Virus record (IMG/VR): IMGVR_UViG_2700989486_000005
From: a virus
Taxonomy: Duplodnaviria; Heunggongvirae; Uroviricota; Caudoviricetes
Strand: one strand, 5' to 3'
Length of the DNA: 14,975 nucleotides
A program made the translations under genes and the position numbers. Positions 11,271 through 13,055 of the stretch are shown piece by piece (position 1 is the stretch's first letter; each line of letters opens with the position of its first letter). Below the pieces are notes generated by a model. It searched no databases. It worked only from the letters and a program-made list of their open reading frames with translations, and was not told where the DNA came from.

Positions 11271-11296
<26 letters not shown>

Positions 11297-11816
11297 TCAG
11301 CAACCCCGGTATCAGTTCATCCAGCGCGGCTGCTTTGTTCATGGCTTTGATGATATCCCGTTTCAGGAAATCAACATGTCGGTTTTCCAGTTCCGGAAAA
11401 CGCCGCTGCACCGACAGGGGGAGCCCGTCGAGAATACTGGCAATTTCACCTGCGATCCGCGACAACACGAAAGTACAGAATGCGGTTTCCACCACTTCAG
11501 CGGAGTCTCTGGCATTCTTCAGTTCCTGTGCGTCGGCCTGCGCACGCGTAAGTCGATGGCGTTCGTACTCAATAGTTCCTGGCTGGAGATCTGCCTCGCT
11601 GGCCTGCCGCAGTTCTTCAACCTCCCGGCGCAGCTTTTCGTTCTCAATTTCAGCATCCCTTTCGGCATACCATTTTATGACGGCGGCAGAGTCATAAAGC
11701 ACCTCATTACCCTTGCCACCGCCTCGCAGAACGGGCATTCCCTGTTCCTGCCAGTTCTGAATGGTACGGATACTCGCACCGAAAATGTCAGCCAGCTGCT
11801 TTTTGTTGACTTCCAT
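11271..11816 (-). CDS. nu1: Terminase small subunit (cosB-binding)
   Basis: 181-aa ORF (MEVNKKQLADIFGASIRTIQNWQEQGMPVLRGGGKGNEVLYDSAAVIKWYAERDAEIENEKLRREVEELRQ...) matching lambda gpNu1; N-terminal winged helix-turn-helix; lies immediately next to cos. Confidence 0.95.
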
Positions 11817-12040
11817 TGTTCATTCCACGGCCAAAAACAGAGAAAGGAAACGACAAAGGCCCAAAAGTTCGTTTTCAGCACCTGTCGTTTCCTTTCTTTT
11901 CAGGGGGTATTTTAAATAAAAACATTAAGTTACGACGAAGAAGAACGGAAACGCCTTAAACCGGAAAATTTTCATAAATAGCGAAAACCCGCGAGGTCGC
12001 CGCCCCGTAACCTGTCGGATCGCCGGAAAGGACCCGCAAA
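11817..12040. other. cos region: cosB (Nu1/IHF sites), cosN with the 12-nt cohesive-end sequence, and cosQ
   Basis: Plus strand at about 11994-12005 reads aggtcgccgccc, the reverse complement of the lambda cohesive end GGGCGGCGACCT. Flanks match lambda left-end (gcgaaaacccgcgaggtcgccgccc) and right-end (cgtaacctgtcggat) sequences joined head to tail. An AT-rich IHF-type segment lies at about 11900-11950. Confidence 0.85.
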
Positions 12041-12204
12041 ATGATAATAATTATCATCTACATGTCACAACGTGCATCTACGCCATCAAACCACGTCAAA
12101 TAATCAATTATGACGCAGGTATCGTATTAATTGATCCGCATCAACTTAACGTAAAAACAACTTCAGACAATACAAATCAGCGACACTGAATACGGGGCAA
12201 CCTC

Positions 12205-12399
12205 ATGTCAACGAAGAACAGAACCCGCAGAACAACAACCCGCAACATCCGCTTTCCTAACCAAATGATTGAACAAATTAACATCGCTCTTGATCAAAAA
12301 GGGTCCGGGAATTTCTCAGCCTGGGTCATTGAAGCCTGCCGTCGGAGGCTAACGTCAGAAAAGAGAGCATATACATCAATTAAAAGTGATGAAGAATGA
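12205..12399 (+). CDS. Small basic protein with predicted ribbon-helix-helix (Arc/CopG-like) DNA-binding fold; function unknown
   Basis: 64-aa ORF with ATG start. Basic N-terminus (MSTKNRTRRTTTRNIRF), then a beta-strand / helix / GSGN turn / helix pattern (NIRFPNQMIEQINIALDQKGSGNFSAWVIEACRRRL). Same size and position as the small ORF next to cos in lambda and, as I recall, ylcI of the K-12 DLP12 prophage. Opposite strand to the late operon. Confidence 0.6.
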   Translation: MSTKNRTRRTTTRNIRFPNQMIEQINIALDQKGSGNFSAWVIEACRRRLTSEKRAYTSIKSDEE

Positions 12400-12492
12400 A
12401 CATCCCGCGTTCTTCCCTCCGAACAGGACGATATTGTAAATTCACTTAATTACGAGGGCATTGCAGTAATTGAGTTGCAGTTTTACCACTTT

Positions 12493-12530
12493 CCTGACAG
12501 TGACAGACTGCGTGTTGGCTCTGTCACAGG
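12493..12530. terminator. Candidate stem-loop between convergent ORFs (gtgacaga ... tctgtcac, ~8-bp stem, 12-nt loop)
   Basis: Inverted repeat seen in the sequence between the stop of the 64-aa ORF and the stop of the 68-aa ORF; no clear U-tract, so terminator function is uncertain. Confidence 0.3.
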
Positions 12531-12563
12531 TTAAGTAGTTTGAATGATTAGCAGTTATGGTGA

Positions 12564-12770
12564 TCAGTCAACCACCAGGGAATAATCCTTCATATTATTA
12601 TCGTGCTTCACCAACGCTGCCTCAATTGCCCTGAATGCTTCCAGAGACACCTTATGTTCTATACATGCAATTACAACATCAGGGTAACTCATAGAAATGG
12701 TGCTATTAAGCATATTTTTTACACGAATCAGATCCACGGAGGGATCATCAGCAGATTGTTCTTTATTCAT
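12564..12770 (-). CDS. Small acidic hypothetical protein (68 aa)
   Basis: ATG start with GGAG Shine-Dalgarno about 8 nt upstream on the minus strand. Same size and position as a lambda right-end ORF and, as I recall, ybcW of DLP12. No recognisable catalytic motif or transmembrane segment. Confidence 0.6.
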
Positions 12771-13055
12771 TTTGTCGCTCCATGCGCTTGCTCTTCATCT
12801 AGCGGTTAAAATATTACTTCAAATCTTTCTGTATGAAGATTTGAGCACGTTGGCCTTACATACATCTGTCGGTTGTATTTCCCTCCAGAATGCCAGCAGG
12901 ACCGCACTTTGTTACACAACCAATACTATTAATTGAAAACATTCCTAATATTTGACATAAATCATCAACAAAACACAAAGAGGTCAGACCAGATTGAAAC
13001 GATAAAAACGATAATGCAAACTACGCGCCCTCGTATCACATGGAAGGTTTTACCA

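Follow-up and report, generated by a model that had tools for sequence, protein, structure and literature searches.

Gene content and landmarks of the locus

The 15-kb window (the whole stretch of DNA that was analysed, 14,975 nucleotides) derives from a lambda-type phage or prophage and reads as the reverse complement of the usual lambda map. Its region 11800-12900 shares 99.9% identity with phage PhiR26_1 and 98% with lambda, and lambda base x corresponds to window position 12006 + (48502 - x). Nu1, a 181-aa open reading frame (ORF), occupies 11271-11816 on the minus strand, with the head genes next on the same strand. The cohesive-end sequence cosN lies at 11994-12005 (minus strand) and reads aggtcgccgccc in the window and GGGCGGCGACCT on the lambda strand. 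By conversion of lambda coordinates to those of the window, cosQ, the packaging-termination signal that we take to occupy lambda 48473-48479, is placed at 12029..12035 (minus strand; GGGTCCT on the lambda strand). This signal is a 7-bp element, and a segment of about 200 bp with cosQ, cosN and cosB suffices for packaging (PMC4669245).

Beyond cosQ, on the strand opposite to Nu1 and the late genes, lies a 64-aa ORF with an ATG start (12205..12399, plus strand), whose product is MSTKNRTRRTTTRNIRFPNQMIEQINIALDQKGSGNFSAWVIEACRRRLTSEKRAYTSIKSDEE. It corresponds to lambda complement(48109..48303), or 48112-48303 by tblastn, without the stop codon. The first-pass annotation had reported a 64-aa frame near cos that opposes the late operon, and the sequence is as it described, with 200 bp separating the frame from cosN. 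A GGGG run at 12194..12197 (plus strand), 7 nt before the ATG, can be read from the sequence as a weak Shine-Dalgarno-like stretch. The ORF is outside the cos segment, its start being 170 bp beyond cosQ; IR2, an inverted repeat described below, is 68-100 bp beyond cosQ.

A conserved gene of a catalogued family

The pattern of substitution in this ORF is that of a protein-coding sequence. Among 16 natural alleles, drawn from 80 viral contigs and several E. coli prophages, the variable sites in codons 1-50 number 5 at first, 4 at second and 31 at third codon positions, and pN/pS across the same alleles and codons is 0.09. Because substitutions are in excess at third positions and pN/pS is this low, we conclude from the allele comparison that the ORF is a real gene under purifying selection. 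Its conserved core is formed by codons 1-47; variability climbs after position ~12345, and the C-terminal tail differs between prophages. Read-through of the TGA into 44 in-frame codons was considered and set aside, since the chance of such an open stretch is ~0.12 and the ynfO type diverges there.

The product matches Pfam DUF3950 (PF13132; 71.4 bits against a cutoff of 25, E 5e-20), NCBIfam NF041551 (YlcI_YnfO_N; 36.6 bits against a cutoff of 30) and PHROG 949 (E 4e-35). By these profile matches, the ORF belongs to the already catalogued YlcI/YnfO (DUF3950) family. It also occupies the position typical of that family, between the lysis/bor region and the small-terminase gene and on the opposite strand. 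In RefSeq E. coli genomes the identical region carries the annotation ylcI, a name given by the NCBI pipeline, which we use here.

In the literature searched, we found no functional or experimental study of YlcI, YnfO or DUF3950. A genome-wide CRISPRi map of essentiality in lambda covers 73 annotated ORFs only, and ylcI is not among them. In E. coli K-12, ybcW and ylcI are convergent genes whose transcripts overlap in at least 50% of RNA-seq samples (PMC12288877), and therefore the copy in the DLP12 prophage is transcribed.

The gene is widespread in E. coli. At least 80% of the 415-bp query is present in 3748 of 5426 complete genomes (~70%), and genomes with any match have a median of two matching places each and a maximum of 13. 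A search of 1.8 billion cluster representatives returned 141 clusters, many of which are error-laden lambda reads, while about 20 are genuine relatives with identities of 35-60%. These relatives retain the sequence K-N/G-I-R-F-P, an amphipathic helix and the sequence N-F-S-A-W-V-x-E/D-A-C. Residues I15, R16, F37 and V41 are invariant in the family, and F17 and S38 are nearly so. When one genome per species was scanned, the family was encountered only in Enterobacterales and Pasteurellaceae, obvious lambda contamination aside.

Two sets of matches were discarded as not reflecting natural diversity. These are ENA contigs of ~3.5 kb, odd in length and 85-98% identical, and matches of 98% in Streptomyces, Cohnella, Pedobacter and others. 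Together they have the appearance of lambda control DNA that carries sequencing errors, or of contamination, a judgment based in part on the 3.6-kb amplicon that serves as a lambda control.

An ORF of this size might instead be open by chance in DNA that is conserved for packaging or for other reasons at the DNA level. Such a view can point to the absence of ylcI from the annotation of the lambda reference records J02459 and NC_001416, to surrounding non-coding DNA that is as conserved as the ORF itself, and to the lack of a clear promoter. It is effectively refuted, however, by the third-position bias and the low pN/pS value, by protein homologs of 35-60% identity that reside in unrelated DNA contexts across Enterobacterales and Pasteurellaceae, and by Pfam, NCBIfam and PHROG models that all score above their cutoffs.

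A predicted ribbon-helix-helix fold

The first-pass annotation had assigned the product to the ribbon-helix-helix (RHH) proteins and had named fold prediction as a check. An AF2 model of the monomer, computed with 22 natural sequences, is indeed RHH-like. With a mean pLDDT of 72, it has an extended segment at residues 12-18, a helix at 19-32, a GSGN loop at 33-36 and a second helix at 37-63, reproducing the strand, helix, tight turn, helix topology of the RHH superfamily. The model is of a single chain, and the RHH ribbon cannot arise in a monomer.

Comparisons with known proteins lead in the same direction. The Foldseek neighbours of the YlcI model are nearly all RHH proteins (StnY, NikR, Arc, CopG, the N-terminal part of MazE9, HicB, ParD2 and AmrZ), with no E-value in that search reaching significance. 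YlcI gives a weak match to the HicB-like phrog_497 (E 0.016), a group that 8 of 22 family members match (best E 8e-5), while two of the 22 match the Arc-like PHROG 228 (E 7e-4). One family member matches Pfam RHH_6 (E 0.092); YlcI itself matched no RHH family in a Pfam search, and a profile search of PDB sequences returned no relative and no tie to any solved structure. Using hhalign, YlcI 11-33 is placed on Arc 8-30 with NIRFP over NLRWP (P 0.012, probability 3.5%), and Mnt aligns to YlcI in the register of Arc. The strand N14-I15-R16-F17 alternates polar and hydrophobic residues, the turn contains glycine, and S38 stands at the start of helix 2 with F37 before it. No fold or profile score for RHH is significant alone; the topology of the AF2 model, the list of structural neighbours, the HicB-like and Arc-like PHROG matches and the register shared with Arc are each weak and agree with one another. 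On the strength of the model and this agreement, YlcI very likely has an RHH fold.

Genomic contexts of ylcI and its homologs

In all 80 lambda-type viral loci, ylcI abuts cos-Nu1, while ybcW, a DUF1398 gene and bor are variably present on its other side. Among 56 haplotypes, conservation extends as one unit over a block of ~11966-12345, which encompasses cosN, cosQ, the upstream region and codons 1-47. Left of this block, the cosB/Nu1 region is a mosaic, and right of it the C-terminal tail of ylcI is variable. In HK97/Stx-type phages, ylcI is 41 bp from, and divergent to, an HNH gene that precedes terS, such that the HNH gene separates ylcI from cos.

Homologs outside these phages occupy other settings. 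About 24 of 41 divergent species-level loci have the gene flanked by an integrase gene and a primase operon, both of which are on the other strand, and the Pasteurella element Pmp7 has the same placement with its DUF3950 gene left unannotated. Judged by gene order, this arrangement of integrase, reversed DUF3950 gene and primase operon is a phage-satellite layout. A scan of the immediate neighbours of the satellite homologs revealed no recognisable DNA-binding gene other than AlpA. A few chromosomal copies are found beside genes for a TonB-dependent receptor, CopC, DUF2946 or cytochrome bd.

The first-pass annotation had tied the gene to cos, a link that the comparative contexts do not bear out as the conserved feature. 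As read from the gene maps, what the loci share is a small gene that stands alone and antisense to a long operon, and not cos adjacency or a fixed partner. This lone antisense arrangement recurs in three kinds of element, namely lambda-type phages, HK97/Stx-type phages and many satellites.

A satellite of E. coli 90-3040, located inside terL of an HK97/Stx-type prophage, carries two DUF3950 genes. One of them also encodes a 53-residue segment with 66% identity to the DNA-binding N-terminal part of the helper-type TerS, and PGAP annotates this fusion as two pseudogene fragments. Because an ortholog of 44% identity in another satellite shares the DUF3950-TerS(N) architecture, the fusion is a conserved protein and not debris. 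The architecture hints at interference at the helper's packaging site.

These contexts bear on whether YlcI is a packaging-linked accessory and not a transcription factor. Such a protein would bind DNA or terminase near the packaging site, and would modulate cos recognition or termination or interfere with the packaging of competing phages or satellites. The invariable proximity to cos-Nu1 in lambda-type loci whose other-side genes come and go, the inclusion of ylcI in one conserved block with cosN and cosQ, and its distance of 41 bp from the HNH-terS packaging genes in HK97/Stx-type phages are all in keeping with this role. So are the two satellite proteins that join DUF3950 to the DNA-binding part of TerS, and it is mainly because of these fusions that we retain both this explanation and the satellite-repressor reading considered in the Discussion. 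A role in packaging is nevertheless unlikely. Most satellite homologs are situated between integrase and primase operon, away from packaging genes, and chromosomal homologs adjoin genes for a TonB-dependent receptor, CopC or cytochrome bd. Adjacency to cos is not even kept in HK97-type phages, where the HNH gene intervenes. As far as is known, no factor of this kind was needed when lambda packaging was reconstituted, which also counts against this role. Furthermore, the defined function of lambda cos needs only cosQ, cosN and cosB plus I2 (PMC4669245).

The first-pass annotation had also raised the possibility that the protein is the antitoxin-like half of a pair. YlcI would then be the antitoxin of a type II toxin-antitoxin system, with a neighbour such as the DUF1398 gene encoding the toxin. 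The weak matches to the HicB-like PHROG 497 are compatible with this proposal, as is the arrangement in the Qin/UTI89 type, in which a co-directional DUF1398 gene follows ynfO by 57 bp. However, we disfavour an antitoxin because there is no conserved co-directional partner gene. The downstream neighbour in the window is ybcW on the opposite strand; more than 20 loci have bor or Rz there, and elsewhere an unrelated ORF on the opposite strand is found. Satellite and chromosomal homologs lack a DUF1398 neighbour altogether. Moreover, the C-terminal tail, which is the toxin-binding part in RHH antitoxins, is the least conserved part of YlcI, and PADLOC defence models yielded no match. Taken together, these observations make an antitoxin function highly improbable.

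Palindromes and promoter-like sites upstream of ylcI

Two inverted repeats are present between cosN and the start of ylcI. IR1 (12041..12057), 6 bp beyond cosQ, is a perfect 8+1+8 palindrome, ATGATAAT-A-ATTATCAT, that includes ATAAT-N-ATTAT at 12044-12054 and is overlapped by the motif gataataattatcatc at 12043-12058. IR2 (12103..12135) is formed by ATCAATTATGACG and CGTATTAATTGAT, which are 13-nt arms (12103-12115 and 12123-12135) with 85% complementarity, a 7-nt spacer and a centre 86 bp upstream of the ATG. The sequence attaattgat (12126-12135) lies inside IR2, and a second copy of the IR1 motif, in the form ATAAT-NN-ATTAT (12100-12111), overlaps its left arm.

The likelihood that such repeats arise by chance was assessed with 2000 dinucleotide-preserving shuffles of 12006-12204 (199 bp). 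The P values were 0.016 for a perfect arm of at least 8 nt, 0.010 for a 13-nt arm carrying no more than two mismatches, and 0.0025 for the two together. The first-pass annotation had drawn attention to AT-rich near-palindromes in this region, and while both of its motifs are present, exceed chance and are conserved, it overstated the composition, since a content of 58% A+T makes the region only mildly AT-rich. The pattern ATAAT-N1-2-ATTAT, which was defined after inspection of the data, occurs exactly twice in the 15-kb window against 0.02 expected, and both occurrences are upstream of ylcI. No lambda-type locus has lost either copy, not even one that is only 86% identical. IR2 is the least variable non-coding stretch among the 56 haplotypes, with 3 of 33 sites varying compared to about 29% in the flanks.

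These palindromes may be binding sites for YlcI, although we put this forward only as a tentative reading of the sequence in which IR1 and IR2 are candidate operators. Their conservation may be due to hitch-hiking, because the whole block of ~11966-12345 is conserved together. IR1 could also be part of an extended cos, since it stays with the cos module in a phage without ylcI; in this lambda-type cos locus it persists in a decayed form, with 3 mismatches in 17 positions. In addition, HK97/Stx-type ylcI genes encode an identical arm and strand, but have a wholly different upstream region that lacks ATAAT-N-ATTAT. This mismatch implies that either the palindromes are not YlcI operators or autoregulation is not the conserved function.

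Other short elements were noted in the same region. The sequence GTATTAATTG at 12124-12133 (plus strand) is a lead, with an inverted partner, CACTGAATAC, at 12184-12193 and a copy with one mismatch at 12164-12173. Both ATAAT-N-ATTAT and GTATTNANTG are candidate motifs within 12006-12204. The 11-mer ACACTGAATAC, located at -88 in the HK97-type, is the only word of at least 11 nt that is common to the lambda-type and HK97-type upstream regions. It is not significant, because its chance expectation is 0.02-0.4 depending on the search space, and beyond this 11-mer the two upstream regions yielded no shared operator.

Searches for transcription signals gave little. A scan of the upstream DNA for sigma-70 promoters on the strand of ylcI itself (plus) revealed none that reaches 9 of 12 matches. 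A promoter-like site with 10 of 12 matches (GTGACA, 16 nt, TATCAT) is located at 12041..12068 on the minus strand, which is that of the late operon. This site faces cos and Nu1, and its -10 element falls inside IR1. We know of no promoter at this position, and the four promoter-like sites in the region are no excess over the 2.9 +/- 1.9 expected. Downstream of ylcI, a search for a terminator or structured RNA identified no significant hairpin (z -0.24) and no Rfam family.

Palindromic repeats of 11-14 bp are also found upstream of satellite homologs, at -45 to -110. They are either of the GTGnnnnnnCAC type at a spacing of 23-24 bp, or consist of TGGTACGTACCA occurring twice at a spacing of 33 bp. 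Repeats reach P<0.05 in 13 of 47 satellite upstream regions, with a Fisher combined value of 1e-10, though these loci are mutually related.

The two helices might alternatively serve as an interaction surface, with YlcI acting by protein-protein contacts, for instance as a product of lysogenic conversion or exclusion that titrates a factor of the host or phage. Its location alongside bor and the DUF1398 gene in an accessory ('moron') stretch would suit such a product, as would the lack of an operator common to the lambda-type and HK97-type copies. We consider this improbable, given that the most conserved residues (I15, R16, F17, S38 and W40) are those of the RHH strand and the helix-2 N-cap, that the structural neighbours are almost exclusively DNA-binding RHH proteins, and that palindromic repeats accompany the gene in several subfamilies.

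Discussion

YlcI is, on balance, probably an RHH DNA-binding regulator and a repressor similar to Arc and Mnt. We infer its dimerisation, its binding to DNA, the sites bound, the timing of its expression and its physiological target, and the mechanism proposed here should be read in this light. Two chains would pair their N-terminal strands (T12-R13-N14-I15-R16-F17) to form a two-stranded ribbon, giving a dimer or possibly a dimer of dimers. This ribbon would enter the major groove, where N14 and R16 may read bases, with I15 and F17 packed in the core. The basic arm rich in threonine and arginine (residues 1-13) could add further DNA contacts, and S38 at the start of helix 2 could grip the phosphate backbone.

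Transcription of ylcI would proceed from its own start and antisense to the late operon. Because of this antisense orientation, the gene is probably expressed in the prophage state, as are bor and P22 mnt. The protein might then exert repression at the palindromes in the 200 bp between the ylcI start and cos (IR1 and IR2). As a result, YlcI could hold down its own production, shut off transcription toward the terminase genes that arises in the cos-proximal region or runs through it, or do both.

A broader possibility concerns the satellites. The RHH proteins of the YlcI/YnfO family could be resident repressors at the divergent control region of these elements (int, alpA, reversed DUF3950 gene, Icd-like/primase), and the helper-phage copies beside packaging genes would share the same regulatory currency. 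Although we judge this scenario quite unlikely, it would concern a large class of satellites in Enterobacterales and Pasteurellaceae. Helper copies might in that case silence stray terminase transcription in the lysogen, where cleavage of chromosomal cos is harmful, or engage in cross-talk with satellites. Satellite versions fused to TerS would act directly at the helper's packaging site.

Lambda is a reference phage, and yet a conserved gene that is often present in several copies per E. coli genome is missing from its reference annotation. If the target of the proposed repressor is transcription toward terminase, or the interplay of helper and satellite, then YlcI would bring another level of regulation to a system that is regarded as completely mapped. 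If it merely autoregulates an accessory gene, then YlcI is an ordinary small repressor.

Comparison with known systems

The gene is already catalogued (YlcI/YnfO, DUF3950), and the protein is probably a further member of the RHH repressors and not a new kind of system. YlcI of the DLP12 prophage and YnfO of the Qin prophage, both in E. coli K-12, belong to the same family, and for YlcI it is essentially the same gene. The synteny in K-12 is likewise the same (Nu1/nohD, cos, ylcI, ybcW, ybcV (DUF1398), bor). Only the C-terminal tail separates the ylcI type (64 aa) from the ynfO type (77 aa).

Among RHH proteins, the best structural and weak profile neighbours of YlcI are the CopG-family antitoxin 5ceg, CopA(SO) 6iya, VapB12, the C-terminal domain of HicB and the N-terminal domain of NikR. 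Unlike these antitoxins and regulators, YlcI is a stand-alone protein of 64 aa encoded by a lone antisense gene, and has neither a toxin partner nor a ligand-binding domain.

Likeness to the packaging-interference proteins Ppi of SaPIs and Rpp of E. coli PICIs (PMC6739421) is limited to the fused satellite variants P0256 and P0196, in both of which the DNA-binding domain of helper-type TerS is present as a copy. This domain copy is the reason for suggesting that P0256 and P0196 act at the helper's packaging site. The YlcI protein of lambda differs from these variants in having no TerS-like part.

Arc and Mnt of the phage P22 immI region resemble YlcI in size and in the predicted strand-helix-turn-helix arrangement, with the strand motif NIRFP of YlcI corresponding to NLRWP in Arc and NFRMP in Mnt, and Arc structures are among the Foldseek neighbours of YlcI. 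However, neither P22 protein has significant sequence similarity to YlcI, the signature N-F-S-A-W-V-x-E-A-C is peculiar to the YlcI/YnfO family, and ylcI has no adjacent antirepressor gene as a target. According to its annotation, mnt of the lambdoid phage P22 lies antisense within the late region and encodes an RHH repressor that keeps up repression in the prophage state. In gene placement, Mnt of P22 is thus the closest analogue of YlcI.

Putative operators upstream of satellite-type genes

DUF3950 genes of the satellite type are preceded by paired repeats of 11-14 bp, located between -45 and -110 from the start codon (loci L002, L003, L146, L151, L152, L157, L160, L161, L169, L175, L177 and L181). 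The repeats either resemble GTGnnnnnnCAC and have a spacing of 23-24 bp, or consist of two copies of TGGTACGTACCA with a spacing of 33 bp. Among 47 DUF3950 upstream regions, 13 yielded P<0.05 (Fisher 1e-10), a statistic that draws on satellite-type loci related to one another. The paired repeats have the appearance of operators that belong to a divergent control region.

In E. coli 90-3040, an HK97/Stx-type prophage carries within its terL gene a satellite of ~8.8 kb (locus L184, 2383-12884; also L003, 6001-6363), whose genes are arranged in the order int, alpA-like, two DUF3950 genes (reversed), Icd-like, primase, TerS and capsid. One of its two DUF3950 proteins, P0256 (120 aa), is a fusion with the N-terminal DNA-binding part of TerS, and its TerS-like part is 66% identical to helper-type TerS. 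An ortholog with the same architecture, P0196, is 44% identical to P0256, the gene for which is called by PGAP as two pseudogene fragments.

The record of Pasteurella 'phage' Pmp7 (OR544138; 10.7 kb), which has a satellite-like gene set, carries a clear DUF3950 gene without annotation (59 aa; L101, 4853-5032, + strand). This gene runs antisense beneath a 224-aa CDS annotated as 'transcriptional repressor', which, judged by its sequence, looks like a spurious ORF.

Chromosomal copies and probable database contamination

Chromosomal, non-phage DUF3950 genes are located directly 3′ of cytochrome bd genes or of a TonB-dependent receptor gene (L012/L158, 6001-6225; L014/L180, 6001-6192; L007/L143, 5001-5180). 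DUF2946, CopC/CopD and YebY are encoded nearby, a setting suggestive of a domesticated regulator that belongs to a metal-related locus.

Lambda right-end DNA is also present at 98% identity, often as contigs of ~3.5 kb, in assemblies of unrelated organisms, including Kitasatospora, Cohnella, Pedobacter, Flavobacterium, Saprospiraceae MAGs and others (L104-L133, L136, L137, L140, L142 and L144). The same DNA occurs in thousands of error-laden ENA contigs, and those of ~3.5 kb underlie P0001-P0120. These occurrences most likely represent lambda control or spike-in DNA rather than biology, and they exaggerate the apparent host range and diversity of the DUF3950 family.

The ylcI region of the window

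A sharp mosaic boundary, seen among 56 haplotypes, separates 11805-11990 from 11966-12345. On one side, cosB and the 5′ end of Nu1 are strongly variable, with two small-terminase types. On the other, a single block that comprises cosN, cosQ, the upstream region and codons 1-47 of ylcI hardly varies. The cosQ-containing word AGGACCCGCAAAA (12029-12041) has two imperfect copies within the 5′ end of the ylcI ORF, AGAACCCGCAGAA (12220-12232) and ACCCGCAACAT (12238-12248), which fall in codons of the Thr/Arg-rich arm and are probably due to chance.

The ylcI frame remains open for 44 codons beyond its TGA stop (12400-12534), until a TAA is reached near 12532. In databases, many gene calls are fused products of 102-110 aa, which probably come from erroneous reads or from a code in which TGA is sense.

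In the Qin type of UTI89 (L020, 2700-3401), a co-directional DUF1398 gene lies 57 bp beyond ynfO (77 aa), an arrangement that resembles an operon of two genes. Between the ylcI-type gene and the DUF1398 gene of the window stands ybcW, on the opposite strand.
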